NCBI GenBank assembly: GCA_964454905.1
Contig: CAYVTR010000002.1
Span: 6,803-70,802 of the forward strand
Length of the DNA stretch: 64,000 bases
Source: an uncultured Woeseia sp.
GTDB lineage: Bacteria; Pseudomonadota; Gammaproteobacteria; Steroidobacterales; UBA11654
Direction of reading: 5' to 3'
Numbering within the stretch: position 1 is the stretch's first letter; every line of letters starts with the position of its first letter. The notes beneath the pieces were generated by a model. It did not search any database, was not told the origin of the DNA, and saw only the letters and a program-made list of their open reading frames with translations. This document shows, one piece after another, positions 9,143 to 50,126 of this stretch. Both the position numbers and the translations under genes were made by a program.

Positions 9143-10435
9143 TTAAGATTTACTGTCCAAGAAATCTTTTAACCTATAAAACAGCATTCCTAATGACATT
9201 GCTGGACCAGAAAACCATTTACCGCCTGGTAATTGAATATGTTTCACACGAGACAATGTATCAATCATATCCCATTCATTACTTATCGCTGAAGCAATAA
9301 TCTTGGCTGCCATATGAGTGGGCCCTACTCCATGACCAGAATAGCCTTGAGAGTAAAAAATGTTCTCGGTTAGCCGCCCTAATTGGGGAATCCGATGAAT
9401 GGTAACGGCAACATTGCCAGCCCAAGCATAATCTATCCTTACATCATTAAGATCAGGAAATACATTTAACATCCGCTTTCTCAAATTTTGATCAATATTT
9501 TTAGGCTCAGCACCAGAATAATTCCATCGTCCCCCAAAAAGAAGCCTGTGATCGGGCGAAAGCCGATAGTAGTCCAAGATAGTATTTAAATCACAAACGG
9601 CCATATCACCAGAGATAAGTTGCTTTGCCCTCTCATTGCCTAAAGGTTCTGTGGCAATAATGCAGCTGTTTGCTGGCATAATCATCCGTCTTAGTTTTGG
9701 GTTTAATGTTCCAATATAGGCATTACCAGCTAACACTAGATGCTCAGTCTTTATAGACCCGTGTTCAGTTTCTATTAAAACCTCACTCCCTGGATTAATC
9801 TTTAATGCTTTTGTTTGCTCATAAATCGATACCCCAAGATCAGCTGCTGCCTTGGCTTCGCCCAAACATAGATTTAAAGGATGGAGATGACCACTTCCTG
9901 AATCAATCATACCTCCAATATAATTTGAAGAACCAACATAATTTTTTATTTGATTCTTGTCTACAAGAGTTAAATTATGCTGATAACCTCTTCGCTCCCA
10001 CTCCTCTTTTCTTATAATTAACTCATCCATTTGGGAATTATTTAGGGCTACCTCTATGAAGCCTTCCTTCAAATCGCATTGTATTCCAAATTCTTCTATG
10101 GTCTGCCTAACCAGATCAGTGCAATCTGCCCCCAGTTTCCAAACAGATTGAGCAATGTCGTCACCCCAACTTTCAAATTTATCACTAAAAGTAAAGCCAG
10201 AAATTAATTGTCCTCCATTCCGTCCACTTGCACCCCAACCTATTCTTGCAGCATCAATCAAAACCACCTCATATCCTTTTTTTGCAAGATTTATTGCTGT
10301 ATTCACTCCTGTAAACCCACCGCCGACAATACAAACTTCAGAGGAAATATTTTCTTTTAGTTCAGGGTAATTTTTAGAGTTATTTATAGTAGCTGCATAG
10401 TAAGAAGGAACATGCTCTATTTTTATGTTTTCCAT
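9143..10435 (-). CDS. FAD-dependent oxidoreductase, gamma-glutamylputrescine oxidase (PuuB)-like
   Basis: The N-terminus SYYAATINN...VCIVGGGFTGVNTAINLAKKGYEVVLIDAARIGWGASGRNGGQL resembles E. coli PuuB and shows a DAO-family dinucleotide fold. Confidence 0.75.
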   Translation of the reverse strand: MENIKIEHVPSYYAATINNSKNYPELKENISSEVCIVGGGFTGVNTAINLAKKGYEVVLIDAARIGWGASGRNGGQLISGFTFSDKFESWGDDIAQSVWKLGADCTDLVRQTIEEFGIQCDLKEGFIEVALNNSQMDELIIRKEEWERRGYQHNLTLVDKNQIKNYVGSSNYIGGMIDSGSGHLHPLNLCLGEAKAAADLGVSIYEQTKALKINPGSEVLIETEHGSIKTEHLVLAGNAYIGTLNPKLRRMIMPANSCIIATEPLGNERAKQLISGDMAVCDLNTILDYYRLSPDHRLLFGGRWNYSGAEPKNIDQNLRKRMLNVFPDLNDVRIDYAWAGNVAVTIHRIPQLGRLTENIFYSQGYSGHGVGPTHMAAKIIASAISNEWDMIDTLSRVKHIQLPGGKWFSGPAMSLGMLFYRLKDFLDSKS

Positions 10436-10519
10436 TTGTTATATTTTTTTAAATGATAATTTTTTTGCTTTAATAAACAGTGTAATATTGATTTATTGAT
10501 CAATTAAGGATTGTACATA

Positions 10520-12064
10520 ATGGCCAGAAGAAGAACCAGAAGAAGTCAACAGACCCCTATTGACAATGAAGTCATTAAACCTGTTGTAGAAAAAGGAATG
10601 ATTGGTGGAAAGTTTAAGCCATTATCCGATCATGATATAGAACAAATTCATCAAACAACTTTGGATGTTTTAGAAAACATTGGGATGTCAAACCCCCTGC
10701 CCCAATTAAAGGAAATAGCACTTAAAAATGGGTGTACGTTTACGGACCAAGGTCGCCTTCTCTTTCCAAGATCATTGGTAGAGGACGTTATTGCTAGAGC
10801 AGGCAGAGATTTTGTTATGTATGGGAGAGACCCAAAAGATGATATAGACATGTCTGATCAAAAAGTTCATCTCTATGGTGGAGGAGAAGCGGTCACCATG
10901 CTTGACTTAGGCGCAAAAAAATACAGATCATCAACAATCAATGATGTGTACGACATTGCTAGATTGGTTGATTATCTTGAGCATGTTCATAGTTATTCCA
11001 GAGTGGTTGTGGCAACTGAGTTTAGCGACCTATTAAAAACAGATATCAACACGGCCTATGCAAGTGTTGTAGGGACAACGAAACACACTGCTTTGACTTT
11101 TGCTAGTGGGGAACACGTGAAACCAACAATTGAAATGCTGGACATGATTGCAGGTGGTGAAGGTAGGTTCTTAAAACGACCCTTCTGTCATGGCGGGGGA
11201 TGTACGGTAGTGTCCCCTCTTCGCTATGGAACAGATAATTGCGAAGTAGCTGTAGCCTCAATCGATTTCAATGCACCAATATGGGTTGTAATTGCGCCTC
11301 AATCTGGAGCAACTGCTCCGGCAGCATTAGCGGGCTCTCTAGTGCAGGTTCTAGCAGAAACATTGGCGAGCTTATTATTGATTGATCTTATAAAACCAGG
11401 TCATCCTGTAATTTTTGGTCCATGGCCTTTTGTCACAGACCTTAGAACCGGGTCCTTTTCAGGAGGCAGCGGTGAAGAAGCTTTGATGAGTGCAGCAGCT
11501 GCCCAGATTACCAATCATTATGGTCTGGCTAGCTCTGTCGGTGCTGGCATGACAGATTCAAAAAGTCCTGATGCACAAGCAGGTTATGAAAAAGGTATAA
11601 CTGTTGTAATGGCTGCGTTAGCTGGGTGTAACAATGTTTCTGAATCTTCTGGGATGATGGCAAGCCTTATGGGTTATTCATTTGAATCTCTGGTGATTGA
11701 TAATGAAATGCTCGGGATGGTTATGAGAACAGTTAGAGGTATTGAGGTCAATGAAGAAACTCTGTCCTATAGAGCAATAAAAGACACGGTAGAGGGAGAA
11801 GGTCATTTTCTAAGGGATCCTCAAACACTTTCATTAATGAAAACTGAATATCTATATCCAACTCTCGCTGACCGCAGTACCCAAGAAGAATGGGAAGCTG
11901 AAGGTTCGCCAGATATACGACAAAGAGCTGAAAAAAGAGCTAGAGAAATCTTGAATTCACACTATCCTGTCTACATTGATGATGCCACTGACAAAAAAGT
12001 AAGGGACACATTCCCTATCGAAATTTCTAGAGACGTTATTAAGCCTACCAAAGATCGATTCTAG
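10520..12064 (+). CDS. MttB-superfamily (trimethylamine methyltransferase family) methyltransferase, non-pyrrolysine, paralog 1
   Basis: The uninterrupted ORF has no in-frame TAG. Family-typical blocks are LDVLENIGM, FPRSLVED, GGC..VSPLR, APQSGATAPAALAGSLVQ, TDSK..DAQAGYEK and HFL..PQT. I moved the start to the ATG at 10520 (MARRRTRR). Confidence 0.85.
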   Translation: MARRRTRRSQQTPIDNEVIKPVVEKGMIGGKFKPLSDHDIEQIHQTTLDVLENIGMSNPLPQLKEIALKNGCTFTDQGRLLFPRSLVEDVIARAGRDFVMYGRDPKDDIDMSDQKVHLYGGGEAVTMLDLGAKKYRSSTINDVYDIARLVDYLEHVHSYSRVVVATEFSDLLKTDINTAYASVVGTTKHTALTFASGEHVKPTIEMLDMIAGGEGRFLKRPFCHGGGCTVVSPLRYGTDNCEVAVASIDFNAPIWVVIAPQSGATAPAALAGSLVQVLAETLASLLLIDLIKPGHPVIFGPWPFVTDLRTGSFSGGSGEEALMSAAAAQITNHYGLASSVGAGMTDSKSPDAQAGYEKGITVVMAALAGCNNVSESSGMMASLMGYSFESLVIDNEMLGMVMRTVRGIEVNEETLSYRAIKDTVEGEGHFLRDPQTLSLMKTEYLYPTLADRSTQEEWEAEGSPDIRQRAEKRAREILNSHYPVYIDDATDKKVRDTFPIEISRDVIKPTKDRF

Positions 12065-12069
12065 AGTTC

Positions 12070-13629
12070 ATGTCAGCTCAAAAGCGAAGAAGTGGTGGCA
12101 GCAAAGCTAGAAGGGCAATTCGCCAAGGTAAAGCAAAGAAAGCGGTTGTTCACCCTGGGCTTGAAACCGGTAACTACAAACCATTGAGTGAGCATGATAT
12201 TAAAAAAATACATGCTACGGCACTAGACGTTCTAGAAAATATTGGCATTAGTGATCCTATACCAGGAATTCTTAATCACACACTTGATAAAGGATGCATC
12301 CTAGGTGATGACAACCGACTAAAATTTCCTAGATCTTTAGTTGAAGATCTTTTAGATATTGCTCCTAAAGACCATCTTATGTATGCCATAAACCCCAAAT
12401 ATGATTATATGGTGTCTGGAAACAAAACTTACTTATCCACATCCGGTGAGCCAATTTCCATATTTGAATATGAATCTCAATCATTTCGTCCTACAACATT
12501 GGTGGATATTTATGATGCTGCAAGGCTTTGCGATCAATTAGAACATATTCATCAGTATGGACAACCCTTTGCAATAACAGAATATAGCCAAGACAAATTT
12601 ACTCATGATATTAATGCTGCTTATGCTGCTTTAGCTGGAACACAGAAAGGGATAGGGCTTGCTGTGGATAATGTTGAACATATTGATCCTCTAATTAATC
12701 TCTTCGACACTTTTCTTGGAGGAGAAGGAGAATATATAAAACGACCTTTCGCTGAAATTGGGGGATGCCCAATAGTTTCTCCTCTAAGGTTTGGAAAAGA
12801 TAATGCTGAAGTCATGGTTAAGTTGGCTGAGATGGGCCTTTACATTGGTGTCTGTACAGCTCCTCAGACCGGTACTACAGCGCCTGCTTCTTTGGCAGGG
12901 AGTCTCGTTCAATCATTTGCCGAAACCCTTGCCTGTCTTTGTGTGGTCAACCTCATTAAACCAGGGTCATATTGTGATTTTGAAATGTGGCCATTTATAT
13001 CTGATCTTAGAACAGGCGCGTTCACCGGTGGTAGTGGTGAGCAAGCCTTAATCATGGCAGCAACAGCTCAAATGTGTAATTTTTATGGGCTAGTTTCTAG
13101 CGTTGCATGCGGGATGACGGACTCAAAAACAATGGATGCACAAGCCGGCTACGAAAAAGCAATAACAACCACAGCCGCAATGCTTGCTGGAGGAAACATT
13201 GTTTCATCATATGCTGGAGCAGTTGGAAGCATAATGGGATGGTCATTTGAGGGAGCGATTATTGACAATGATATGTCTGGAAATATACAAAGGTTAGTGA
13301 AAGGCATTGAGGTTAATGATGAAACATTATCCTATGATGTTATCAATGACGTTGTCTATGGAGATGGACACTATCTCAAACATCCTCAAACAATTAACCT
13401 AATGGAGTCTGAATTTTTATACCCTAATTTAGCAAATAGACAAACCACACAAGAATGGGAAGAATCTGGAAAGCAAACCATTTATGACGCTGCACATCTA
13501 AGGTTAAAACAAATGATGAAGAATTATTATCCAGAATATATAAATAAAAAAATTGATGACAAAATAAGATCTGAATTTCCAATTCGACTAGAAAAAGAAA
13601 GGATGAAACCAAATCTTGACTGGAAATAG
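12070..13629 (+). CDS. MttB-superfamily methyltransferase, non-pyrrolysine, paralog 2
   Basis: It shares the same conserved blocks as paralog 1 and is about half identical to it by eye. It starts 5 nt after paralog 1 ends. Confidence 0.85.
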   Translation: MSAQKRRSGGSKARRAIRQGKAKKAVVHPGLETGNYKPLSEHDIKKIHATALDVLENIGISDPIPGILNHTLDKGCILGDDNRLKFPRSLVEDLLDIAPKDHLMYAINPKYDYMVSGNKTYLSTSGEPISIFEYESQSFRPTTLVDIYDAARLCDQLEHIHQYGQPFAITEYSQDKFTHDINAAYAALAGTQKGIGLAVDNVEHIDPLINLFDTFLGGEGEYIKRPFAEIGGCPIVSPLRFGKDNAEVMVKLAEMGLYIGVCTAPQTGTTAPASLAGSLVQSFAETLACLCVVNLIKPGSYCDFEMWPFISDLRTGAFTGGSGEQALIMAATAQMCNFYGLVSSVACGMTDSKTMDAQAGYEKAITTTAAMLAGGNIVSSYAGAVGSIMGWSFEGAIIDNDMSGNIQRLVKGIEVNDETLSYDVINDVVYGDGHYLKHPQTINLMESEFLYPNLANRQTTQEWEESGKQTIYDAAHLRLKQMMKNYYPEYINKKIDDKIRSEFPIRLEKERMKPNLDWK

Positions 13630-13724
13630 GTCTTTAATAAGATTATCATTCTACACAACACTGATTTGAACCAGATTGCAGGTGCCTAAATATTGCTAAA
13701 GCGGGGTTAAAATAAGATTTCGAT

Positions 13725-13760
13725 AAAACCTGTTTAGCAAAAGCTATCAGGTTTTTTTTT
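13725..13760 (+). terminator. intrinsic terminator or attenuator hairpin between mttB paralog 2 and metF
   Basis: AAAACCTG-TT-TAGC-AAAA-GCTA-T-CAGGTTTT forms an extended hairpin that runs into a T9 tract. The hairpin ends 14 nt before the metF ATG. Confidence 0.55.
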
Positions 13761-13773
13761 GGAAAAAGATTTT

Positions 13774-14619
13774 ATGATTAAGGACATTTCATTTGAGTTC
13801 TTTCCTCCAAGAACAGAGAAAATGGAGCAGAACCTAAAGCAAAACATAGGAAAGTTAATGGAACTATCTCCTAAATTTGTATCTATTACCTATGGTGCAG
13901 GAGGGACCACTCGAGATAAAACTCATAAAATCATCTCTAAGTTAATAAGTGAAACCGATCTCAATGTTGCTGCCCATTTAACCTGTGTCAATTCAAGTAT
14001 AAATGAAATTGATGAGGTTATAGAAAGCTACACCTCCATAGGGGTTAAACACATTGTTGCTCTTAGAGGTGATATGAAAGATTTAGGTCCATTTACCCCT
14101 CATCCTAAAGGTTTAAATAGTTCAATTGAGCTAGTCAGACATATTAAAGGCAAAAGCAACATAAAAGTTTCTATTAGCGGTTATCCTGAGCCACATCCAG
14201 AATCCCAAGGAATTTCGACAGATATTAACTTTATTAAATCTAAAATTGATGCTGGGGCTGATCAAATAATTACTCAATTTTCCTTTCAAGCTGAAAATTA
14301 TATTAAATATAGAGATACATTAGTTAACCAAGGCATTAATATACCGATTATTCCTGGGATTATGCTTATTAAGAGCTTTAAAGGAATAAAGAATATGAGT
14401 AATAAAGTTGGCATAAATGTACCAAATTGGGTTGATAAAACCATTGAAAGAGAAACAGAAGAAACTCAAAAAGTAATAGCTGAGGATTTTGCTAGAACCC
14501 AATCATCTGTATTAGAAAGCAATGGATTTGAGCAACTTCACTTTTATACCTTAAATGAATCTAAGATTATGAAAAACATTGCTAAACACCTAGGCTTTTA
14601 TAAAAAAAGTACTATATAA
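13774..14619 (+). CDS. metF: 5,10-methylenetetrahydrofolate reductase, canonical E. coli-type
   Basis: SFEFFPPRTEKMEQNL, SITYGAGGTTRDKTH, AAHLTCV, ALRGD and ITQF are classic MetF blocks. I chose the ATG at 13774 rather than the TTG at 13759. Confidence 0.85.
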   Translation: MIKDISFEFFPPRTEKMEQNLKQNIGKLMELSPKFVSITYGAGGTTRDKTHKIISKLISETDLNVAAHLTCVNSSINEIDEVIESYTSIGVKHIVALRGDMKDLGPFTPHPKGLNSSIELVRHIKGKSNIKVSISGYPEPHPESQGISTDINFIKSKIDAGADQIITQFSFQAENYIKYRDTLVNQGINIPIIPGIMLIKSFKGIKNMSNKVGINVPNWVDKTIERETEETQKVIAEDFARTQSSVLESNGFEQLHFYTLNESKIMKNIAKHLGFYKKSTI

Positions 14620-14635
14620 ATAAAAAAGAATAATC

Positions 14636-15679
14636 ATGATAACAATCGAATCTCAGATAAAAGAAAAAGGTTATCTACTAGCAGATGGTGCTACTGGAAC
14701 AAACTTATTTGACATGGGATTAGAGTCAGGTTATTCCCCGGAATTTTGGAATCTAGAATTCCCTGAGCGTGTAAAAGCTAACCATGAAAATTTTATACGT
14801 GCTGGATCAGACATTATCTTAACCAACTCGTTTGGAGCAAATAAATATAGACTGGCCCTTCATGATGCTGAAAACAAAGTAGAAGATTTAAATTTTGAGG
14901 CAGCGAGACTTGCAAAAGAATCAACTGATACATTTGAAAAACCTGTTTTTATCGCAGGCTCAATAGGCCCAACTGGTGAAATATTAGAACCATTAGGCAC
15001 ATTAACTAAAAAAGATGCTCAAGCAGCTTTTAAAAAACAGGCGTCAGCATTGAAAGACGGTGGTGCTGACCTACTATGGATTGAAACCATGTCCTCAGAA
15101 GAAGAAATGGAAGCCGCTTTATTAGGAGCCAAAGAGTCGTCATTACCCATCATTTGTTCTTATAGTTTTGATACTCATGGTAAATCCATGATGGGTCTAG
15201 AACCCTCACAGCTTGCAGAGCTTGCCAGAAAGTACTGTCCAGATGTTATTGGTTATGGAGCAAACTGTGGTATAGGGGCTTCTGAGTTAATTGGTTCTTT
15301 AATTTGCTTTAAAACCTCTAACAAGAATGAAGATCTGTTGCTTGTGGCTAAGGGTAATTGTGGTGTTCCTGAATTTAAGGGAGATGCCATAGTCTATAAT
15401 GGAACCCCGGAAATGATGGCAAAGTATGCTCGACACGCTAGAGATATGGGTGCATCTATTATAGGCGGATGCTGTGGCACCACCCATGTTCACATAAAGG
15501 AAATGTCAGAGGCATTACAATCGTATAAACCCTTAATAGAAAAAATAGATCTAGATTCTATTATTGAAGATTTGGGACCCATGACCGTTGGAAATAAGGA
15601 AATGATAAATAATTATCTCAACCCAGGCTCAACACAAACAAAAGCAACAAGAGAAAGAAAAAGAAAAAGAAGAAGATGA
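14636..15679 (+). CDS. homocysteine S-methyltransferase domain protein (stand-alone MetH Hcy-binding module; BHMT-like alternative)
   Basis: Supporting motifs are LLADGATGTNLF, ILTNSFGAN, GANCG and the GGCCGTTHVH zinc-ligand cysteines. The C-terminus is polybasic: TRERKRKRRR. Confidence 0.8.
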   Translation: MITIESQIKEKGYLLADGATGTNLFDMGLESGYSPEFWNLEFPERVKANHENFIRAGSDIILTNSFGANKYRLALHDAENKVEDLNFEAARLAKESTDTFEKPVFIAGSIGPTGEILEPLGTLTKKDAQAAFKKQASALKDGGADLLWIETMSSEEEMEAALLGAKESSLPIICSYSFDTHGKSMMGLEPSQLAELARKYCPDVIGYGANCGIGASELIGSLICFKTSNKNEDLLLVAKGNCGVPEFKGDAIVYNGTPEMMAKYARHARDMGASIIGGCCGTTHVHIKEMSEALQSYKPLIEKIDLDSIIEDLGPMTVGNKEMINNYLNPGSTQTKATRERKRKRRR

Positions 15680-15743
15680 ATGACTTTTGTAGCTAAAACG
15701 CTTGACCTGAAGTACTATATATTCGAAAAATTGGAGTTAGATA

Positions 15744-16430
15744 ATGCCAGAAGAATTTGATGATATTATACTTTCAGAACTCGATGATCAAGAACTCACA
15801 GAGCAGATGCATGAAGACCTCTATGATGGTTTAGCTGAAGAAATTGCTGAAGGAACGCAAATCTTATTAGATAGAGGATGGGAAGCAACTGAAGTATTAG
15901 ATAAAGCTCTAGTTGAGGGTATGGTCGTTGTGGGTGATGATTTCCGTGATGGAATTTTATTTGTCCCAGAGGTTTTATTGGCAGCCAATGCAATGAAAGC
16001 AGGCATGGCTTTATTGGAACCGATTCTGTCAGAATCTGGAGTAGAACCAATTGCCACAATGGTGATCGGAACTGTCAAGGGTGATATCCATGACATTGGC
16101 CAAAAACTGGTAGGAATGATGATGGAAGGCGCTGGCGTTGAAGTCTTCAATCTTGGCGTTAACACCGACGTCGATGAATACATTAATGCTCTTGAAGAAC
16201 ATAATGCAACAATTCTTGGAATGTCAGCATTGCTCACCACAACCATGCCCTATATGAAAGTAGTGGTTGATGAATTAAAAGCAAGAGGAATCAGAGACAA
16301 ATACATCATTATGGTTGGTGGCGCACCTTTGAACGATGAATTTGCTGAACACGTTGGAGCAGATGCTTATTGCATGGATGCTGGTAGCGCTGTAGAGACT
16401 ATGAAAAAGTTAGTTGCTGCTAACAATTAA
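15744..16430 (+). CDS. corrinoid (cobalamin-binding) protein with B12-binding cap and Rossmann domains
   Basis: Supporting motifs are DxHxxG (GDIHDIGQKLV), SALLTTTM and MVGGAPL. The N-terminal 37 aa are strongly acidic (15 D/E, no K/R). Confidence 0.85.
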   Translation: MPEEFDDIILSELDDQELTEQMHEDLYDGLAEEIAEGTQILLDRGWEATEVLDKALVEGMVVVGDDFRDGILFVPEVLLAANAMKAGMALLEPILSESGVEPIATMVIGTVKGDIHDIGQKLVGMMMEGAGVEVFNLGVNTDVDEYINALEEHNATILGMSALLTTTMPYMKVVVDELKARGIRDKYIIMVGGAPLNDEFAEHVGADAYCMDAGSAVETMKKLVAANN

Positions 16431-16432
16431 TA

Positions 16433-17023
16433 ATGACCGAAAAATTACTTATTATTGCTTGTGGGGCACTGGCATTCGAACTAAATCAACTAAAAAAACT
16501 CAACTCTTGGAATCATGTGAGTATCAAGTGTCTTGATGCAGAACTTCATAATACTCCTAAATTAATACCCGAGAAAGTCAGAGAAAAATATCTGACTTTG
16601 AAAGATGATTTCTCAAAGGTTTTTATCGCCTATGCTGATTGTGGTACAGGCGGATTACTAGATAATGTTCTAAAAGAATATGGTCTTGAAAGACTAGAGG
16701 GTGCCCATTGTTATGAGTTTTATTCAGGGCAAAGAAATTTTACTCATTTTACTGAACAAGAACTTGGCACATTTTACTTAACCGATTTTCTGGTCAAACA
16801 TTTCGAAAGATTGGTAATAGAAGGATTGGGTATGGATCAACATCCAGAATTAAAAAATGATTATTTCAAACATTATAAGAAAGTTATCTATTTAGCTCAG
16901 TCTAGATCAAAATCATTACAGCAAGATGCTAAAAAATATGCAGATTTTCTAGACTTAGATTACTCTTTTTATTACACAGGTTTAGATAATCTAGAATCGC
17001 AATTAAATCAGTCGGTTAACTAA
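16433..17023 (+). CDS. DUF1638-like protein (accessory protein of split corrinoid methyltransferase systems)
   Basis: LLIIACGALAFEL...AYADCGTGG fits DUF1638 as I recall it. The gene sits between the corrinoid protein and the pterin-binding gene. Confidence 0.6.
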   Translation: MTEKLLIIACGALAFELNQLKKLNSWNHVSIKCLDAELHNTPKLIPEKVREKYLTLKDDFSKVFIAYADCGTGGLLDNVLKEYGLERLEGAHCYEFYSGQRNFTHFTEQELGTFYLTDFLVKHFERLVIEGLGMDQHPELKNDYFKHYKKVIYLAQSRSKSLQQDAKKYADFLDLDYSFYYTGLDNLESQLNQSVN

Positions 17024-17322
17024 TGGGTAAAATGATTACAATTTATTGGAGAGATATTCCTTCACACGTGATCTATAAGCTCGGCAGAGAAAAATATAAA
17101 AAACAGCTTAACCCTAAATTCGAGACCGCTATTGATAGAGCCGCAATGAGAGCGGGTAAAGGCTCGAGTGATGCCTATATGTCAGAATGGCGGAGAGAAA
17201 CAGTTGCCATGCAAGGAAACCCTCAAGAGTTGGTAGATAACCTAGTGAATGAATTAGAAAATCAATTTACTGATGAGGTTCTTGAAAAAACGATTAAGGC
17301 CAAAGGAATAAAACCAAAATAG
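17023..17322 (+). CDS. small conserved protein (99 aa), possibly of the 'virulence factor' domain family seen beside split-MetH genes
   Basis: It is coupled to DUF1638 through a TAATG overlap. The family assignment is from memory only. Confidence 0.4.
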   Translation: MGKMITIYWRDIPSHVIYKLGREKYKKQLNPKFETAIDRAAMRAGKGSSDAYMSEWRRETVAMQGNPQELVDNLVNELENQFTDEVLEKTIKAKGIKPK

Positions 17323-17331
17323 GATTACATT

Positions 17332-18210
17332 ATGCCGCGAACAATTATAAGCTCCAATACAAAAGAAATCATTATTGATCCAGATCAACCATTCGTGATC
17401 ATTGGCGAGAGAATCAATCCAACAAATAGAAAATTGCTCGCAGCAGAAATGAAAGTAGGCAATCTTGAAAGAGTTGAACAAGATGCTATGAGCCAAATCA
17501 ATGCAGGCGCACAAATATTGGATGTTAATGCGGGAGTTCCATTAGCTGATGAACCAAAAATTTTGGCAGACTCAATTAAATTAATTCAGAGTATATCTGA
17601 TGTCCCACTGTGCATCGATTCTTCAATAGTCGAGGCCTTGAAGTGTGGTCTTGAAGCTTATCAAGGTAAAGCACTGTTGAACTCAGTAACTGGTGAAGAG
17701 GAACGATTAGAAACTGTTCTACCTTTAGTGAAACAATTTGGATGTGCTGTTATTGGAATATCTAACGATGATTCAGGTATATCTGAGGATATCAACGTTC
17801 GTTTTGAAGTTGCAAAAAAGATAGTTGAACGAGCCATGGATCATGGGATCCCCAAAGAAGATGTCATAATTGATCCTTTGGTTATGCCGATAGGTGCTAT
17901 CAATGATGCCGGAAAACAGGTTCTAGAGTTGATAAAGAAATTACAGAATGAATTACAAGTCAATACCACCTGTGGTGCTTCTAATTTAAGCTTTGGTCTC
18001 CCAAATCGACATGGATTAAACACAGCTTTTATTGCCATGGCAATAGCCAATGGTATGCCCTGTGCAATCACCAATCCATTAGAAAAAGAGATAATGCAAT
18101 CCATTAGAGGGGCAAATGTCGTTATGGGGCATGATCCTGAATGTTCTGATTGGATTATGCATTACCGAGAACCCAGAGAGAAAAGAAGCAGAAGAAAAAG
18201 AAGATCTTAG
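17332..18210 (+). CDS. pterin-binding domain protein; methyltetrahydrofolate:corrinoid methyltransferase (MetH pterin module / AcsE-MtrH-like)
   Basis: Supporting motifs are IIGERINPTNRK, LDVNAG, CIDSS, NSV and a DHPS-like TIM barrel pattern. The C-terminus is polybasic: REPREKRSRRKRRS. Confidence 0.8.
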   Translation: MPRTIISSNTKEIIIDPDQPFVIIGERINPTNRKLLAAEMKVGNLERVEQDAMSQINAGAQILDVNAGVPLADEPKILADSIKLIQSISDVPLCIDSSIVEALKCGLEAYQGKALLNSVTGEEERLETVLPLVKQFGCAVIGISNDDSGISEDINVRFEVAKKIVERAMDHGIPKEDVIIDPLVMPIGAINDAGKQVLELIKKLQNELQVNTTCGASNLSFGLPNRHGLNTAFIAMAIANGMPCAITNPLEKEIMQSIRGANVVMGHDPECSDWIMHYREPREKRSRRKRRS

Positions 18211-18221
18211 CTTCATATCCT

Positions 18222-20225
18222 ATGGCTCAGATGAATAAAAAAGAGTACAAAATTGCATTCATGCCATCAGGAAAGAGAGGCTCCTTTCCAGAGGGAACAA
18301 CTATTCTAGATGCCTCTAGAGCACTTGGTGTTGATTTAGATTCTGTTTGTGGGGGCAGAGCAATTTGTGGGCGTTGCCAGATAGAATTAACCGAAGGTAA
18401 ATTTGCAAAACATGGTATTGAATCCAAAGCAGATCATTTATCTGGGGTAACAAAGGCAGAAAAAAAATACGAAAAAAGAAAATCATTGGATAAAAAGCGA
18501 AGATTAGGCTGTCAATCAAAACTTCTTGGAAACGTGGTCATTGATATTCCTCCGGAAAGTCAGCTGCATCAACAAATAGTTCGTAAAGATTTTGAAGCCA
18601 CTGATATTTTCATCAATCCAATAACAAGACTCTACTATATTGACTCCAAAATCAATGCAGCCACAAATCTTGAAGAAGCAGTAAAAGAAAGACTGAGAAA
18701 TGACTGGTCTTTGAACATAGAGTCTATAAATTGTGCCTCAAAAACTCTTAGTGATGCCATCAAAGATTCTTCCCAGGGGTTTACGGTTGCGGTTAGAGAT
18801 CAGAAAAATTTGGTAGGGGTTTGGCCAGGGTTAATTGAAACCATTTACGGTACTGCAATTGACATTGGATCAACCACAATAGCAGTGAATTTATGTGACT
18901 TAAAAAATGGAAAAGTGCTCTCCAGTCAAGGATCGATGAATCCTCAGATAAGGTTCGGGGAAGATCTCATGAGCAGAGTTTCTTATTGCATGCAGAATCC
19001 TGGGTCTCAAACTGAACTGACAAAGGTGGTGCGTGAAGCGGTTAATGACCTTATAGCAAAAGCTTGTTCTGAGGCAAATATTGAAACTAGTTTGGTGATG
19101 GAGACTACAGTTGTTGGCAATCCAGTAATGCATCATCTGTTTCTTGGGTTTGATCCGGTCCCACTAGGTGTCGCACCTTTTAAGCTTGAAACTAGTGACG
19201 CGCTGACTCTTAAGGCTTCTGATTATGGGATGGATATTCATCCCCAAGCTGAAATTTATGTTCTGCCATGCCTAGCAGGGCATGTTGGAGCAGATGCTGC
19301 TGCTGTGATTCTCACCGAAAAACCCTATGATCAAAAGACAATGAATCTCATTGTGGATGTGGGAACCAATGCAGAAATAATTGTTGGCAATCAGGATCAA
19401 ATTTTAGCTGCCTCAAGTCCGACTGGCCCAGCTTTTGAGGGAGCTCAAATTAATTCGGGACAACGAGCCGCTCCGGGTGCAATAGAGAGAGTTAGAATTG
19501 ATCCATTAACCCTAGAAGCCCGTTTCAAAGTGATAGGTTCAGATTTATGGTCTGATGATCCTGATTTTAGTGAAAACATTGAATCAATTGGTATAACAGG
19601 GATCTGTGGATCTGGGATTATTGAAGCTGTGGCCGAAATGTACTTGTCCGGAATTATTTCTTCAGATGGATTAATGAATGAAGAAATGGCCAAAGAGAAT
19701 CAATATCTTTTTAAAAATGGCAGAACTTATTCCTACGTGCTCTATGAGGGTGAGCAGAAAATAATCGTTACACAAAATGATATCCGAGCAATACAACTAG
19801 CTAAAGCAGCATTGTATGCTGGTGCAAAATTGTTAATGGATAAATTAGCAATCAAGAAAATAGACAAAATCAGATTTGCTGGTGCTTTTGGAAGCCATAT
19901 TGATGTGAAATATGCGATGGTTTTAGGTCTTATACCTGATTGTGACCTAGATGAAGTAAGTTCAGCAGGGAATGCAGCGAGCACAGGTGCAAGAATGGCA
20001 CTTCTGGATACAAAAAGTAGAAATGAAATAGAAAAACAGGTGAAAAAGATAGAAAAAATAGAAACTGCCATAGAACCTCTATTTCAAGAATATTTTGTTG
20101 GCGCTATGTCGGTACCTCATAACACTGATCCTTTTAATGAGTTGAGTAAAATCATAAAATTGCCTGAAAAGAAAAAAGCAAAGACCAATAGAAAGAGAAG
20201 AAAAAAAAGAACATCTGATCTATAA
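18222..20225 (+). CDS. RACo-type reductive activator of corrinoid proteins (2Fe-2S ferredoxin domain + ASKHA ATPase, DUF4445/COG3894)
   Basis: The N-terminus has plant-type ferredoxin cysteines (CGGRAICGRCQIEL). ASKHA motifs are IDIGSTTIAV, VDVGTNAEI and GICGSGIIEA. I chose the ATG at 18222 to avoid overlapping the upstream gene. The C-terminus is polybasic: KKKAKTNRKRRKKRTSDL. Confidence 0.8.
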   Translation: MAQMNKKEYKIAFMPSGKRGSFPEGTTILDASRALGVDLDSVCGGRAICGRCQIELTEGKFAKHGIESKADHLSGVTKAEKKYEKRKSLDKKRRLGCQSKLLGNVVIDIPPESQLHQQIVRKDFEATDIFINPITRLYYIDSKINAATNLEEAVKERLRNDWSLNIESINCASKTLSDAIKDSSQGFTVAVRDQKNLVGVWPGLIETIYGTAIDIGSTTIAVNLCDLKNGKVLSSQGSMNPQIRFGEDLMSRVSYCMQNPGSQTELTKVVREAVNDLIAKACSEANIETSLVMETTVVGNPVMHHLFLGFDPVPLGVAPFKLETSDALTLKASDYGMDIHPQAEIYVLPCLAGHVGADAAAVILTEKPYDQKTMNLIVDVGTNAEIIVGNQDQILAASSPTGPAFEGAQINSGQRAAPGAIERVRIDPLTLEARFKVIGSDLWSDDPDFSENIESIGITGICGSGIIEAVAEMYLSGIISSDGLMNEEMAKENQYLFKNGRTYSYVLYEGEQKIIVTQNDIRAIQLAKAALYAGAKLLMDKLAIKKIDKIRFAGAFGSHIDVKYAMVLGLIPDCDLDEVSSAGNAASTGARMALLDTKSRNEIEKQVKKIEKIETAIEPLFQEYFVGAMSVPHNTDPFNELSKIIKLPEKKKAKTNRKRRKKRTSDL

Positions 20226-20305
20226 ATTACCTTGAATAAAATCTCTGCAGAATAAATAATTTTGTGATAAATTTCTGCCATCACTACCCTAAACTTTCTT
20301 CTATT

Positions 20306-21511
20306 ATGGAAAAACTAGAACAACTAATTAATAACCAGGTCAAAGACTGGTCTCTAGATCAAGAATTTTATAAAGACAAAGAAATTTATGATCTAGAGAT
20401 TGAGAAAATCTACATGAATTCTTGGCTATTGGCTGGACATGAATCTCAAATTCCAAACACAGGTGATTATTTTCTTTTCAATCTGTTATCAGAATCAGTA
20501 ATTATCATCAGAGGTAAAGATGGTGTGATCAGGGCCTTTATGAATGTTTGCAGGCACCGTGGCTCTCACATTTGCTTAGAAAGTCAAGGCAATGTGAAAC
20601 GATTGACATGCCCCTATCATGCATGGACTTATAACTTGGAAGGCGCTCTAGTGGCTGCTCAGAATTTGAGCAATAAAATAGATAAAGAAAATCTTAGTCT
20701 GCATAACTGCTCAATAGATGTTATTGAAGGGCTGATACTGATTAATTTTGCAGATAATCCTTCATCACTTGCGATGATGAAACAAGAATTATCAGAACCA
20801 ATGCAAATGTTCGGAATGAAAGATCTGAAAATAGCTGCGCATAGAAATTATTCTATTGAAGCCAACTGGAAACTCACAGTCGAAAATTACAATGAATGCT
20901 ATCATTGTGCTCCAGCTCATCCAGAATATGCAAAATCGCACAGCCTAAAATATGATGAATCGAGTAACGAATATCAATCAGCTCAAAAAGCAATGATGGA
21001 AACACTTGCTGCATGTGGTATGAAAGATTACGAGATTAACGCAGATTATGTCGATCGAATTGCATCACAAGAGCAATATGCCTATGGCCGCTATGCATTG
21101 TATGGTGGATACATTACTGGCAGTGAAGATGGCAAAGCCCTCGCTCCTCTGATAGGTGAAATCACTGAATATAATCCGGGTGCTTCTGACTTCTGTCTTG
21201 GTCCTGTTAGTTTCTTACTGGCCTACAGCGATCACGTGGTTGCCTATGTCTTTACTCCAGTTACTCATCAAACTAGTCAGTGTGACGTTTATTGGATGGT
21301 TGATAAAGACGCCAAAAAAGACAAAGACTATGATCTTGAACGTCTAATCTGGTTATGGGATGTCACCACTAAAGCAGATGAGAGAATCATTGAGAATAAT
21401 CAAAAGGGCGTTAACTCTAGAAAATATACTTCAGGGCCTTTTTCTGAGAAGGAATCAACAGAAAAACGATTTATCAGCTGGTATCTTGATCAGCTAAGAG
21501 AAACTTTATAG
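20306..21511 (+). CDS. Rieske [2Fe-2S] non-heme-iron oxygenase alpha subunit (GbcA/CntA/Stc2-like N-demethylase candidate)
   Basis: The Rieske motif is CRHRGSHIC...CPYHAWTY and the mononuclear iron motif is ENYNECYHCAPAHPEY. I chose the start at MEKLEQL. Confidence 0.8.
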   Translation: MEKLEQLINNQVKDWSLDQEFYKDKEIYDLEIEKIYMNSWLLAGHESQIPNTGDYFLFNLLSESVIIIRGKDGVIRAFMNVCRHRGSHICLESQGNVKRLTCPYHAWTYNLEGALVAAQNLSNKIDKENLSLHNCSIDVIEGLILINFADNPSSLAMMKQELSEPMQMFGMKDLKIAAHRNYSIEANWKLTVENYNECYHCAPAHPEYAKSHSLKYDESSNEYQSAQKAMMETLAACGMKDYEINADYVDRIASQEQYAYGRYALYGGYITGSEDGKALAPLIGEITEYNPGASDFCLGPVSFLLAYSDHVVAYVFTPVTHQTSQCDVYWMVDKDAKKDKDYDLERLIWLWDVTTKADERIIENNQKGVNSRKYTSGPFSEKESTEKRFISWYLDQLRETL

Positions 21512-35588: not shown

Positions 35589-35589
35589 A

Positions 35590-36405: not shown

Positions 36406-36411
36406 TAGCGC

Positions 36412-37932: not shown

Positions 37933-37951
37933 TTTTAGTTCTCCTTCAATT

Positions 37952-40039: not shown

Positions 40040-40047
40040 AAATTAGT

Positions 40048-41238: not shown

Positions 41239-41239
41239 C

Positions 41240-44417: not shown

Positions 44418-44418
44418 T

Positions 44419-45732: not shown

Positions 45733-45918
45733 ATATCTTCTCTGTTTCTGTCCTGCATTCAGGAATAATTGAACTTTTATGGACACGTGCCGCGTCTAAG
45801 GAATACAGATTAGTTTCTTGTATAAATGATATTGAAACGAGAATTTAGTAGATACATCATATGATGATATGGTATCCAAAAGAAAATCAGTTGAAAAGGA
45901 AAATCGTGTGGATCAATA

Positions 45919-50114: not shown

Positions 50115-50126
50115 ACGAGAAAAAAT

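Follow-up and report, generated by a model that had tools for sequence, protein, structure and literature searches.

Does a single corrinoid protein serve both methionine synthesis and methyl-group catabolism in the uncultured marine gammaproteobacterium from which this DNA derives? An earlier note on the locus had argued for such a hub from a list of genes for two MttB-type methyltransferases, a split methionine synthase and a reductive activase. Profile searches across the window (the whole 64-kb stretch of DNA that was analysed) returned family matches for every part, and all genes of that list are real open reading frames that match the predicted families strongly, which confirms the observation of the gene set (Table 1). 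Identical metagenome contigs supplied the gene calls by which boundaries were corrected: MttB1 begins at 10520, MetF at 13774, the activase at 18222 instead of 18150 and the Rieske gene at 20306, and the BCCT start is taken from the same calls. Besides, the functional island reaches further upstream than first described and takes in the DmdA-like gene, the BCCT transporter and a second MTHFR. The identical 15-gene order was found again on at least eight independent ocean metagenome contigs, and 38 of 61 informative loci drawn from five bacterial groups (Alpha-, Beta- and Gammaproteobacteria, Acidimicrobiia and Chloroflexota) share the core string MtgC-DUF1638-PF13769-MtgD-RACo, so the arrangement is not due to chance. 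We consider it quite probable that the locus harbours a modular cobalamin methyl-transfer system of the MtgBCDE type, built around a shared carrier.

Table 1. Genes and regulatory elements of the locus, with window positions and supporting matches.
Feature	Position	Strand	Evidence
DmdA-like GcvT-family aminomethyltransferase	5428..6552	-	NF009133 DMSP demethylase 404 bits, just under cutoff 410
BCCT-family betaine/choline/carnitine-type transporter	6758..8230	+	TIGR00842 383 bits
Divergent MTHFR (MetF2-type; MTHFR2)	8227..9135	+	PF02219 family; NF006396 C-terminal half 217 bits
DAO-family FAD amine oxidase/dehydrogenase, divergent from MttB1	9143..10435	-	PF01266 229 bits
MttB1, non-pyrrolysine MttB-superfamily methyltransferase	10520..12064	+	PF06253 347 bits
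MttB2, paralog of MttB1	12070..13629	+	PF06253 306 bits
Sigma-70-like promoter match just 5' of riboswitch	13616..13643	+	TTGACT-16-TAAGAT, 9/12 positions, consensus match only; weak evidence
SAM-II-like riboswitch aptamer	13655..13716	+	Rfam sub-threshold in window: SAM_alpha 20.6, SAM-II 21.2 bits
Intrinsic terminator (expression platform)	13725..13760	+	ends 14 nt 5' of metF ATG
Canonical MetF (methylene-THF reductase)	13774..14619	+	PF02219 277 bits; TIGR00676 290 bits
MtgE, homocysteine-binding Zn methyltransferase module	14636..15679	+	PF02574 220 bits; NF005718 423 bits, above cutoff 338
Conserved mtgE-mtgC intergenic block	15680..15743	+	AAGTACTATATAT.CG.AAAATTGGAG
MtgC, stand-alone corrinoid (B12) carrier	15744..16430	+	PF02607 and PF02310
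DUF1638 protein	16433..17023	+	PF07796 100 bits
PF13769 small protein, 99 aa	17023..17322	+	PF13769 63 bits
MtgD, pterin-binding methyl-THF:corrinoid methyltransferase	17332..18210	+	NF005719 354 bits, above cutoff 259
RACo/RamA-like reductive activase ([2Fe-2S] ferredoxin, middle, ASKHA ATPase)	18222..20225	+	PF00111, PF17651, PF14574
Rieske non-haem-iron oxygenase, Stc2/GbcA-like N-demethylase (O2-dependent neighbour)	20306..21511	+	GbcA model NF058607 320 bits, cutoff 670

MtgC, the sole B12-binding gene product within the window, carries the motifs D114xH116xxG119, S161xL163 and G192G193 and keeps 66-74% identity across the five bacterial groups, while the models for anaerobic MtgC and for MetH all scored under their cutoffs. 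Any metH, metE or further corrinoid protein genes that the genome may have would lie outside the 64-kb view. In MtgE, the residues C211, C279 and C280 are present, and MtgD matches MeTr and MetH Fol domains at 135-153 bits. The activase contains the domains Fer2, Raco_middle and RACo_C_ter together with C43, C49, C52 and C97, and aligns with RACo (PDB 3ZYY; 300 bits) over residues 8-634 of 667. The DUF1638 gene adjoins mtgC in 56 of the 61 loci. The PF13769 gene lies beside DUF1638 in 45 and upstream of (MTHFR2-)MtgD in 42 of them, forms an in-frame fusion with MtgD in one (L084), and has a counterpart in the Sinorhizobium meliloti cluster annotated as 'virulence factor'. Its AF2 model is confident (pLDDT 94.7), and a search of the PDB with this model found no structural match. 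The 99-aa protein is thus a conserved but uncharacterised and previously unreported member of the gene string.

Among the flanking genes, the DmdA-like gene is syntenic in all relatives, and the stop of the BCCT gene overlaps the start of MTHFR2. The best NCBIfam matches of the DAO-family protein, pipecolate oxidase (199 bits) and Phn_aa_oxid (193 bits), are both far under their cutoffs. In the PDB, the best match of the Rieske protein is stachydrine demethylase Stc2 (223 bits to 3VCA/4QUP), ahead of CntA (170 bits), and its gene has no reductase partner beside it.

The terminator that had been noticed after MttB2 is real, but it is not a plain terminator, as it belongs to a SAM-II-like riboswitch before metF-mtgE. 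The core known from the Rfam SAM-II and SAM_alpha families is conserved, and homologous aptamers in relatives score 28-35.7 bits (Rfam gathering score, 36). In stem P1 (13658-13661 with 13682-13685), three of four pairs have compensatory changes and 96.7% of cells are paired, compared with at most 40% in slid controls; the outermost P1 pair is an A-C mismatch in the window. The pseudoknot of AACC (13669-13672) with GGTT (13705-13708) covaries to GCC/GGC in two loci (L106 and L107). All relatives keep the terminator hairpin (-12.9 kcal/mol, z = -3.98, with U9 behind it) directly 5' of metF or mtgE. Its TTTAGCAA (13733-13740) complements the aptamer strand TTGCTAAA (13693-13700) exactly, which makes a possible antiterminator pairing. 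With MetF and MtgE, and possibly the downstream genes too, placed behind this element and its putative ligand-binding aptamer, the methionine branch would probably be off when SAM is plentiful. If the terminator also governs mtgC, mtgD and the activase gene, SAM would stop the shared modules, a poor fit with high-flux catabolism. The block between mtgE and mtgC, which is kept between lineages whose MtgE proteins are only 68-73% identical, contains a promoter-like match (15702-15731) and is possibly an internal promoter or a translation signal.

The segment from mttB2 to mtgC is a variable cassette with or without metF: sister populations with flanks of 86-92% identity share only 68-70% in MtgE, and metF is missing both in the sister population (L001-L004 and L101-L105) and in each of the 80 MtgC loci from other taxa. 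The MetF within the cluster is of the E. coli type (3FST, 217 bits) and placed behind the riboswitch, so it is more likely biosynthetic than methyl-oxidising, and the route of C1 oxidation via this enzyme that had been proposed is not borne out. The counterpart of the MetF2-type enzyme linked to methyl oxidation, and a likely candidate methyl-THF oxidiser, is instead the divergent MTHFR upstream of MttB1, which reaches only 37 bits against the best solved MTHFR and has homologs (41-44% identity) between the PF13769 and MtgD genes in nine loci.

A charge pattern runs through the cluster. MttB1 begins with MARRRTRR and MttB2 with MSAQKRRSGGSKARRAIRQGKAKK (net +10 in 25 aa), MtgE ends with TRERKRKRRR, MtgD bears a C-terminal extension (EKRSRRKRRS) that MeTr lacks, and the activase tail beyond the 3ZYY match, KKKAKTNRKRRKKRTSDL, is likewise polybasic, whereas MtgC has a net charge of -32 and a pI of 4.05. 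At least five Lys/Arg among the last 15 residues were counted in 16/16 MtgE proteins and in fractions of 0.90 for MtgD and 0.80 for RACo, compared with at most 0.09 for MtgC, DUF1638, PF13769, MTHFR2 and DmdA-like proteins, and an RRSGGRxxR-type N-terminal motif is common to MttB genes of both clades. This pattern fits one shared carrier, and the Arg/Lys-rich termini probably let these partners dock in turn on the acidic MtgC cap region.

Taken together, the neighbouring genes of the locus supply every part of a B12 methyl shuttle for methionine synthesis, and probably for the removal of methyl groups from nutrient amines as well. The single, very acidic MtgC would cycle between Co(I) and methyl-Co(III); MtgD would exchange methyl groups with tetrahydrofolate in either direction and MtgE would pass them to homocysteine, giving methionine, so that MtgD, MtgC and MtgE together would form a split methionine synthase. 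Oxidised Co(II) would be re-reduced by the RACo-type activase together with DUF1638. Methyl groups most likely reach the same carrier through MttB1 and MttB2, which would take them from one or two imported methylated compounds; these may enter via the adjacent BCCT transporter. The methyl group could then go to homocysteine, or via MtgD to methyl-THF, which MTHFR2 would oxidise.

The two MttB paralogs share 50% identity, and MttB1 matches MttB (7XCL, 212 bits) and MtgB (9YCE, 207 bits) in the PDB. The pyrrolysine codon position is ATG (11549-11551; M344) in MttB1. Comparison with the site of D. hafniense MtgB revealed that Y97, R312, H348 and F356 are absent from both proteins (PMC13080624), the site positions being occupied by G122, S339, E375 and L383 in MttB1 and by Gly, S344, M349, S380 and I388 in MttB2. 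MttB1, a predicted methyl donor to Co(I), belongs to a clade without the MtgB betaine site. Since the betaine-binding Tyr/Arg/His, which D. hafniense MtgB keeps, are missing, glycine betaine is not supported as a substrate, and the quaternary-amine substrate of the earlier note cannot be assumed.

The hub may be real and yet draw its methyl groups from something other than an acidic quaternary amine; candidates are trimethylamine, choline and other methylamines that are cationic or neutral. All characterised non-Pyl MttB members conserve R312, whose salt bridge holds the carboxylate or phosphate of the substrate (PMC13080624); both window proteins have Ser there, with H348 replaced by Glu in MttB1 and Ser in MttB2, and F356 by Leu and Ile, respectively. 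The Gly/Ser-or-Gly/Met-or-Ile/mostly-Glu/Leu pattern holds throughout the clade in alpha- and gammaproteobacteria, and the Pyl-position block GxGMTDSKxxDAQAGYEK resembles true MttB. However, alphaproteobacterial clade members adjoin genes for betaine ABC transporters and for DMGDH-like flavoproteins of 800 aa, a setting that suggests substrates akin to betaines, the BCCT transporter is of a type typical for betaines, and other residues could bind a carboxylate. Moreover, MtgB1 of R. pomeroyi, which glycine betaine induces, has MttB matches of 56-58% identity in Arctic96BD-19 single-cell genomes, which would matter here if MtgB1 is of the same clade. We hold a non-acidic donor to be rather unlikely; if true, the system would be an aerobic, pyrrolysine-independent B12 route for these donors and not a pathway for glycine betaine. 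Slightly less likely still is a housekeeping split methionine synthase with the MttB genes as neighbours and no catabolic C1 flux. MtgC, MtgD, MtgE, the activase, DUF1638 and PF13769 would then make methionine with methyl-THF from the in-cluster MetF, and the MttB proteins would at most scavenge methyl groups for it, as a modular betaine-homocysteine-type methyltransferase. The SAM-responsive-type riboswitch and canonical MetF directly 5' of mtgE-mtgC point this way, as do P. inhibens genetics, by which MtgC, MtgD, MtgE, a RamA-like protein and DUF1638 are needed for methionine synthesis (Price 2018, PMC5764234), and the placement of MtgE in a family annotated as Bhmt in S. meliloti; the cluster itself contains none of the C1-oxidation genes folD, fhs and purU.

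Such a restricted role is hard to square with the MetF2-type second MTHFR, the BCCT transporter and the DmdA-like gene immediately upstream, or with R. pomeroyi, whose mtgC and mtgD mutants are methionine auxotrophs that cannot use glycine betaine, even when supplied with methionine (PMC12478193). Two MttB paralogs and the conserved MttB-mtgC adjacency in other gammaproteobacteria suggest more than trace scavenging, and the mtgE-mtgC intergenic block may allow SAM-independent expression of the shared modules. It is more improbable again that MttB1 and MttB2 are functionally unrelated to the methionine-synthase operon, using a corrinoid protein encoded elsewhere or none, with their position due to gene-order shuffling. 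The promoter-like site, riboswitch and terminator between mttB2 and metF would agree with this, as would the variable cassette and the alphaproteobacterial loci in which the same MttB clade occurs without any corrinoid gene. Against it, MttB enzymes need a corrinoid partner, for which the window offers MtgC alone; MttB1 orthologs (59-62% identity) lie directly upstream of mtgC, with no cassette between, in two other gammaproteobacterial MAGs (L016 and L035); and MttB1/2 share the Arg-rich N-terminal motif with cluster-embedded MttB proteins, in parallel to the MtgE, MtgD and RACo tails. Stand-alone MttB genes in single-MtgC alphaproteobacteria are, besides, what a shared carrier predicts.

The shared-carrier reading, which we thus favour, has close precedents. 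The split methionine synthase with DUF1638 that the earlier note named from a roseobacter is indeed on record (Price et al., 2018; PMC5764234), and its idea of one corrinoid carrier as a branch point matches the MtgBCDE model shown genetically in R. pomeroyi, in which one carrier serves methionine synthesis and methyl-group catabolism (PMC12478193). Published genetics and proteomics (PMC12478193, PMC5764234) speak for this reading. The hub is therefore plausible, but it has been described before (Mausz et al.; experiments in other marine bacteria demonstrated this system in 2025). Nor does the co-encoding of all parts stand out as had been thought, since the S. meliloti cluster, named as MtgBCDE (PMC12478193), already co-locates them. 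The window proteins are orthologous to that cluster, with the same gene set at 41-68% identity (MtgC 68%, MtgD 56%, activase 53% to the ASKHA protein, MtgE 49% to bmt, DUF1638 42%, PF13769 42%, and MTHFR2 41% to the cluster-embedded MTHFR), except for the MttB genes: the S. meliloti MttB is only 25-28% identical to MttB1/2 and keeps the betaine-binding Tyr/Arg/His that they lack. In contrast to the window-type proteins, RACo, MeTr and MtgB of anaerobes have no polybasic extensions, and the activase, although matching 3ZYY, differs from anaerobe-type RACo by its added tail. The locus is a further example of the published system with some new details, and not a new kind of system.

Every element named in the earlier note, from the two PF06253 MttB-superfamily paralogs (MttB1 and MttB2) to the RACo/RamA-like activase, was recovered by ORF listing and profile searches of the window, with start codons corrected from the gene calls on identical public contigs. 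The corrinoid carrier MtgC carries the hallmark residues D114xH116xxG119, S161xL163, and G192G193, and the homocysteine module MtgE carries C211, C279, and C280. For the activase, Pfam identified all three RACo domains (N-terminal ferredoxin, middle, and C-terminal ASKHA ATPase), its cysteines form the motif C43-x5-C49-x2-C52...C97, and it matches RACo (PDB 3ZYY) over the full length with 300 bits. Its scores stay below the equivalog cutoffs for both AcsV (352 vs 800 bits) and RamA (125 vs 500 bits), and it is therefore a RACo family member of neither of these two named subtypes. No MetH-type PF02965 domain was found in any cluster protein by Pfam search. From mtgC through the activase gene, the intergenic gaps are 0-11 nt or the genes overlap, which is typical of one operon. 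The Rieske oxygenase and the DAO-family flavoprotein are O2-dependent enzymes for amine demethylation/oxidation and may handle product amines or parallel substrates.

Features of the locus and of other parts of the window (window positions)
Feature	Position	Strand	Evidence or remark
Fused class-II HMG-CoA reductase/mevalonate kinase (752 aa), then type-1 IPP isomerase	831-3664	+	
DmdA-like GcvT-family gene	5428-6552	-	upstream, beyond the range of the earlier note
BCCT transporter	6758-8230		upstream, beyond the range of the earlier note
MTHFR2	8227-9135		overlaps stop codon of BCCT transporter; beyond the range of the earlier note
DAO-family flavoprotein	9143-10435	-	divergently oriented
MttB1	10520-12064	+	PF06253, 347 bits
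PYLIS_3 match in mttB1	11549-11648	+	55.5 bits vs 38
MttB2	12070-13629	+	PF06253, 306 bits; 50% identity to MttB1
mttB2-MetF gap	144 nt	+	
SAM-II-like element	13648-13716		SAM_alpha and SAM-II long loop, below gathering scores
Terminator hairpin	13725-13755		-12.9 kcal/mol, z = -3.98
MetF	13774-14619	+	
MtgE, homocysteine S-methyltransferase module	14636-15679	+	NF005718, 423 bits (cutoff 338)
mtgE-mtgC spacer	15680-15743	+	64 nt
MtgC, cap + Rossmann corrinoid protein	15744-16430	+	PF02607 + PF02310
DUF1638	16433-17023	+	PF07796
PF13769 protein, 99 aa	17023-17322	+	
MtgD, pterin-binding module	17332-18210	+	NF005719, 354 bits (cutoff 259)
RACo-type activase, [2Fe-2S]/ASKHA	18222-20225	+	PF00111, PF17651, PF14574
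Rieske oxygenase, Stc2/GbcA-like	20306-21511	+	
Possible amine or polyamine catabolic operon	34218-45786 and 49020-52959	- and +	
Second GcvT/Tdm-like aminomethyltransferase	40048-41286		within the possible amine/polyamine operon

Outside the Mtg cluster, i.e. the locus encoding MtgC and its partners, the window includes mevalonate-pathway genes, which are unusual for a gammaproteobacterium. Besides, two gene groups that may form an amine or polyamine catabolic operon encode a glutamine-synthetase-like ligase (gamma-glutamylputrescine synthetase-like), an enoyl-CoA hydratase, a PuuC-like aldehyde dehydrogenase, an ADP-forming acyl-CoA ligase, two CrtI-family flavoproteins, and a class-III aminotransferase, and adjoin a PotFGHI transporter. 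This putative operon may provide a further THF-linked demethylation route.

Numerous contigs from ocean metagenomes, up to 167 kb long, encode exact copies of the window proteins, with all 15 genes in unchanged order, and several sampling campaigns contributed identical contigs. In the metagenome search with MtgC, where all 8,000 scored candidates passed E <= 1e-20, the best 120 of these 8,000 were all about 90% identical or more. The window population is widespread in open-ocean metagenomes, and the locus is neither a chance arrangement nor an assembly artefact. A sister population with about 90% identical MtgC keeps the gene order without metF, while its MtgE is only 68-70% identical, compared with 86-92% for the flanking genes. 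The absence of metF and the divergence of MtgE between conserved flanks point to the mttB2-mtgC segment as a variable cassette. In addition, an MtgC profile scan of species-representative genomes yielded at least 80 loci for comparison from the matches listed, among which MtgC is 66-74% identical in Gamma-, Alpha-, and Betaproteobacteria, Acidimicrobiia, and Chloroflexota, and 67-69% identical to the Rhodobacteraceae homologs. Synteny was determined by tblastn of the window proteins against 80 loci and counted in those 61 for which 5 kb or more of sequence follows mtgC. MtgC and DUF1638 are adjacent in 56 of the 61, DUF1638 and the PF13769 protein in 45/61; the order PF13769-(MTHFR2)-MtgD, where MTHFR2 denotes the divergent, MetF2-type MTHFR, occurs in 42/61, and the complete string MtgC-DUF1638-PF13769-(MTHFR2)-MtgD-RACo in 38/61. 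The mtgE-mtgC-DUF1638 neighborhood is present in alphaproteobacterial loci as well. In two loci on metagenome contigs from a more distant lineage (L106, 2198-5873; L107, 210-2576), the arrangement is riboswitch-(metF)-mtgE-DUF1638-PF13769-mtgD-activase; mtgC is missing between mtgE and DUF1638, so that the corrinoid protein must be encoded elsewhere in this lineage.

The small PF13769 protein is as conserved in this gene string as MtgD and the activase, and contains the invariant motif WRDIP...F..A.DRAAMRAG...Y...W.R. Its confidently predicted fold (pLDDT 94.7, pTM 0.84), with the order beta-beta-beta-alpha-alpha-beta-alpha-alpha, has no relative among solved structures according to a structural search, and the protein is absent from the main text of Mausz 2025. 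The fixed position upstream of (MTHFR2-)MtgD suggests that it works with the folate branch. In one Acidimicrobiaceae MAG (L084, 11332-12672), PF13769 and MtgD share a single 445-aa frame connected by an Arg/Thr-rich linker, which may be a natural fusion hinting at a functional link, or may have arisen from stop-codon loss or a sequencing error.

The earlier note had assigned MetF to C1 oxidation. This is no longer our preferred reading, because MetF is an E. coli-type enzyme (217 bits to 3FST) located behind a SAM-II-like riboswitch; further evidence against such a role comes from its absence in sister populations and in all other Mtg clusters. As an E. coli-type, riboswitch-controlled enzyme, MetF probably supplies methyl-THF for methionine. 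MTHFR2 is divergent, its best solved match reaching 37 bits, and is on sequence comparison orthologous to the MTHFR found inside other Mtg clusters, corresponding to MetF2 of Mausz et al. Homologs of MTHFR2 lie between PF13769 and MtgD in nine loci; in the window, MTHFR2 is found 1.4 kb upstream of mttB1, away from mtgD.

The control element in front of metF had been described as a terminator following MttB2. The hairpin and the U-run are real, but they are part of a SAM-II-like riboswitch. The upstream element of the window scores 20.6 bits against Rfam SAM_alpha (RF00521, gathering score 36) and 21.2 bits against SAM-II long loop (RF01726, gathering score 44), and homologous elements on related contigs reach 24-35.7 bits vs the gathering score of 36. 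The core UGAUUUGA...GAUUGCA...GCUAAAG is kept. Like SAM-II, the element combines the core UGAUUUGA, GAUUGCA, and UUGCUAAAG with a P1 helix, a loop-to-3'-tail pseudoknot, and a position upstream of methionine-pathway genes, whereas it differs in its short P1 (3-4 bp), the coupled intrinsic terminator, and the gammaproteobacterial host. In all 14 leaders compared (12 distinct), the element precedes metF or mtgE and is followed by a hairpin and U-run ending 1-61 nt before the start codon. P1 varies from GCAC/GUGC to ACAC/GUGU and GCGU/ACGC, with changes on both sides in three of the four pairs, and the pseudoknot pairs vary from ACC/GGU to GCC/GGC, both reflecting few independent events. P1 cells are paired in 96.7%, compared with 15.6-39.6% when the partner is slid, and the outermost P1 position of the window aptamer is mismatched (A-C). 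Automated pair counting was confined to P1 and the inner stem, and the pseudoknot pairs were counted by hand, as MAFFT misaligned the 3' half of the aptamer in L106 and L107. A regex search detected no SAM-II core in 80 Mtg loci of other taxa, its matches being confined to the window lineage and its relatives.

Within the terminator, TTTAGCAA (13733-13740) is fully complementary to the strand TTGCTAAA (13693-13700) of the aptamer, and the corresponding pairing comprises 5-7 bp in most variants and only 3 bp in two sister-population loci (L101 and L104). We infer a simple SAM-off antiterminator/terminator switch from this pairing. Sequence and covariation of the riboswitch suggest that SAM closes the metF-mtgE branch through it. 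In the spacer between mtgE and mtgC, the block AAGTACTATATAT.CG.AAAATTGGAG is kept although MtgE of the lineages is only about 70% identical, and a consensus match revealed a promoter-like sequence. Conserved block and promoter-like match together suggest that the shared modules could be expressed independently of SAM; the block may act as a promoter within the cluster or at the level of translation, decoupling them from the riboswitch. Besides, a stand-alone mtgE/bhmt-like gene with the same riboswitch-plus-terminator leader and no Mtg neighbors was observed on two further metagenome contigs (L108, 3904-3980, and L110), and its product is 58-60% identical to the window MtgE. With 35.7 bits against SAM_alpha, this leader misses the threshold by 0.3 bits, suggesting that the Rfam model slightly under-calls the marine variant.

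For MttB1 and MttB2, the earlier note had assumed a quaternary amine as methyl donor. In the glycine-betaine site of MtgB from D. hafniense (DhMtgB), Y97 and F356 provide cation-pi contacts and R312 and H348 bind the carboxylate (Picking 2026, PMC13080624). R312 is shared by every characterised member without pyrrolysine, all of which act on acidic quaternary amines (PMC13080624). Pairwise and multiple alignments place G122, S339, E375, and L383 of MttB1, as well as Gly, S344, S380, and I388 of MttB2, at the positions of Y97, R312, H348, and F356, respectively; the last three positions fall within an ungapped stretch with DSK, DAQAGYE, GxN, and SxE as anchors, while the Y97 region is less certain. 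MttB1 and MttB2, 29% identical to DhMtgB, lack the residues of its glycine-betaine site, and glycine betaine is therefore unsupported as a substrate by the pocket. This cautions against labelling every marine PF06253 gene as a glycine-betaine methyltransferase.

A pyrrolysine-dependent enzyme was considered as well, since Rfam PYLIS_3 matches mttB1 above its threshold. However, ATG (M344) occupies the position of the PYLIS_3 UAG and of the X in 7XCL. Methionine occupies the pyrrolysine position in both MttB1 and MttB2, both reading frames are intact, and the TIGR02369 scores of 396 and 345 bits fall below the cutoff of 525. The insertion element was thus rejected, and the match is attributed to coding-sequence homology with no in-frame UAG. 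PYLIS_3 matches above the gathering score also occur in the sister-population locus L101 (1750-1849 and 3315-3417), and the model readily misleads automatic annotation where MttB genes are without pyrrolysine.

Y97, R312, and H348 are retained in the MttB proteins encoded within the Mtg clusters of S. meliloti, other Rhizobiales, Acidimicrobiia, and Chloroflexota, whose identity to DhMtgB is 38-45%. The S. meliloti cluster MttB is DhMtgB-like (45% identity) with all three residues retained, in contrast to MttB1 and MttB2, which are without them and only 25-28% identical to it. The clade of MttB1 and MttB2 is characterised by Gly at Y97, Ser/Gly at R312, Met/Ile at the pyrrolysine position, mostly Glu at H348, and Leu at F356. 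It includes the MttB of two further gammaproteobacterial MAGs, in which its gene immediately precedes mtgC (59-62% identity), and stand-alone genes located on replicons of roseobacters and rhizobia (40-49% identity), and a paralog on the R. pomeroyi megaplasmid other than MtgB1/MtgB2 (SPO2108/SPO2134), 40% identical to MttB1, belongs to the same clade. In the plasmid records where this clade forms stand-alone catabolic modules (L114-L116, L118, and L119; Roseovarius, R. pomeroyi megaplasmid, Mesorhizobium, S. meliloti, and Leisingera), mttB was never accompanied by its own corrinoid protein gene, and the neighbors include LysR regulators, 800-aa FAD oxidoreductases, Rieske oxygenases, and betaine/polyamine-type ABC transporters.

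Arg/Lys-rich termini are present exactly on the proteins expected to dock on MtgC: MARRRTRR at the N-terminus of MttB1 (10520-10600), MSAQKRRSGGSKARRAIRQGKAKK at that of MttB2 (12070-12145), and TRERKRKRRR, EKRSRRKRRS, and KKKAKTNRKRRKKRTSDL at the C-termini of MtgE (15640-15676), MtgD (18170-18207), and the activase (20160-20222), respectively. MtgC itself has a net charge of -32 and a pI of 4.05, with a charge of -11 in the first 25 residues (N-terminus 15744-15850). No such basic termini were found in the MetF, MTHFR2, DAO, DUF1638, Rieske, and DmdA-like proteins of the window. In loci from other taxa, five or more K/R among the 15 C-terminal residues are present in 16/16 MtgE, in a fraction of 0.90 of MtgD (n = 49) and 0.80 of activases (n = 44), compared with 0.00-0.09 for MtgC, DUF1638, PF13769, MTHFR2, and DmdA-like proteins; the median net charge of MtgC in these loci is -21, and an N-terminal RRSGGRxxRxxxR-type motif is common to MttB of both clades. 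The pattern of basic tails and an acidic carrier is conserved across five bacterial groups. The solved anaerobic homologs are without polybasic extensions: RACo (3ZYY) has 9 residues beyond the aligned core vs 33 in the window activase, the methyltransferase MeTr (2E7F) stops at residue 278 of the 292 of the window MtgD, and DhMtgB starts at residue 31 of MttB1. The main text of Mausz 2025, Price 2018, and a literature search gave no mention of polybasic termini. We surmise that these termini act as tethers by which the partners are brought, one after another, to the acidic cap region of MtgC. MttB carries the same type of tag as the methionine-synthase modules, which bears on the possibility, named in the earlier note as a refutation, that the homocysteine and pterin modules do not interact with the MttB proteins.

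Taken together, a methylated compound would enter via the BCCT transporter, and MttB1 and MttB2 would use it to methylate Co(I)-MtgC, as family membership, synteny, and the tail signature suggest. MtgD would equilibrate methyl-Co(III) with methyl-THF, in line with genetics in R. pomeroyi, and methyl-THF would be oxidised by MTHFR2, as proteomics elsewhere suggests. Homocysteine would be methylated by MtgE and Co(II) repaired by the activase and DUF1638, in analogy to P. inhibens genetics and, for the latter step, the biochemistry of RACo homologs, whereas MetF may feed the methionine branch when the methyl donor is absent. Going further, the N-terminal peptides of MttB and the C-terminal peptides of MtgE, MtgD, and the activase might compete for docking on the acidic cap region of MtgC, a mechanism absent from anaerobic corrinoid systems; the PF13769 protein might be a further obligatory subunit acting with MtgD; the SAM-II-like element might set the split between methionine synthesis and methyl oxidation; and the clade of MttB1 and MttB2, without the acid-binding Arg of all characterised non-Pyl members, might demethylate a non-acidic methylamine, for instance TMA or choline. 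That all four propositions hold jointly is rather unlikely in our estimation. If MttB1 and MttB2 did act on such a compound, the ocean would harbour an aerobic B12 route independent of pyrrolysine that has so far gone unrecognised.

The riboswitch, the PF13769 protein, the polybasic, putative docking termini, and the distinct MttB pocket are unreported features of the locus, and riboswitch control, an unstudied small protein, candidate docking peptides, and an altered pocket offer experimental openings on a topical system. The locus points to the B12 dependence of an abundant, streamlined marine gammaproteobacterium for methionine, and probably also for methylated osmolyte use. Its contiguity makes the complete system a convenient starting point for heterologous reconstitution.

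The locus is a member of the MtgBCDE kind, the window proteins being orthologous to that system as judged from their sequences. The idea of one corrinoid carrier serving both methionine synthesis and C1 catabolism, put forward in the earlier note, is right in outline but not new, as the dual role was tested experimentally in Ruegeria pomeroyi DSS-3, the one organism for which it is known. There, methionine prototrophy as well as growth on glycine betaine depend on both MtgC and MtgD (Mausz, PNAS 2025, PMC12478193). On N-osmolytes, PF06253 proteins (MtgB), a MetF2 paralog, a RamA-like protein, and DUF1638 are induced in this strain, MetF2 most strongly and as the proposed oxidiser of methyl-THF (PMC12478193). 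Both systems share PF06253 proteins, a stand-alone MtgC, MtgD, MtgE, a RamA/RACo-like activase, DUF1638, a MetF2-type MTHFR, and an aerobic marine host. In contrast to the scattered genes of R. pomeroyi, those of the window are contiguous, mtgE included, and a canonical metF and the SAM-II-like riboswitch are added. According to the same study, mtgC occurs in SAR116, SAR324, and SUP05-type bacteria, most mtgC carriers are without MetH and MetE, neither of which is listed for the incomplete Arctic96BD-19 single-cell genomes in Dataset S2, and mtgE usually lies away from mtgBCD in marine taxa (PMC12478193).

Phaeobacter inhibens makes methionine via three separate MetH-like proteins together with a ferredoxin+DUF4445 'RamA-like' protein and DUF1638, and its methionine prototrophy requires both this activase and DUF1638 (Price 2018, PMC5764234). 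The homocysteine, B12, and pterin modules are separate proteins there as in the window, whereas that study dealt with methionine synthesis only and described no MttB link, PF13769 protein, or riboswitch (PMC5764234). The anaerobic systems, D. hafniense MtgB/MtgC/MtgA and Eubacterium limosum MtpB, MtcB, MtyB, and MthB, follow the same MT1-corrinoid protein-MT2 logic, and several MttB paralogs share one corrinoid protein and an ATP-dependent activase, as is probable for the window, but they have no homocysteine branch. Against the anaerobic MtgC models, the window MtgC stays under the cutoffs (189 vs 370 bits and 172 vs 310 bits), and it likewise falls short of that of the MetH model.

Co-location of all parts, which stood out in the earlier note, has a precedent in the S. 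meliloti cluster, cited as fully co-located and with bmt/Bhmt (Barra et al. 2006) reinterpreted as MtgE (PMC12478193); S. meliloti also has MetH (PMC5764234). All parts lie within about 18 kb there: bmt, MttB, a cobalamin-binding protein, DUF1638, a 'virulence factor' (PF13769), MTHFR, a methyl-THF:cobalamin methyltransferase, and the ASKHA activase. The S. meliloti locus differs from the window in a MetV-like protein beside its MTHFR, in interspersed unrelated genes, and in being without canonical metF and SAM-II-like element. Between the two loci, MtgC is 68%, MtgD 56%, the activase 53%, and MtgE/bmt 49% identical, and DUF1638, PF13769, and MTHFR2 are 42%, 42%, and 41% identical, respectively.
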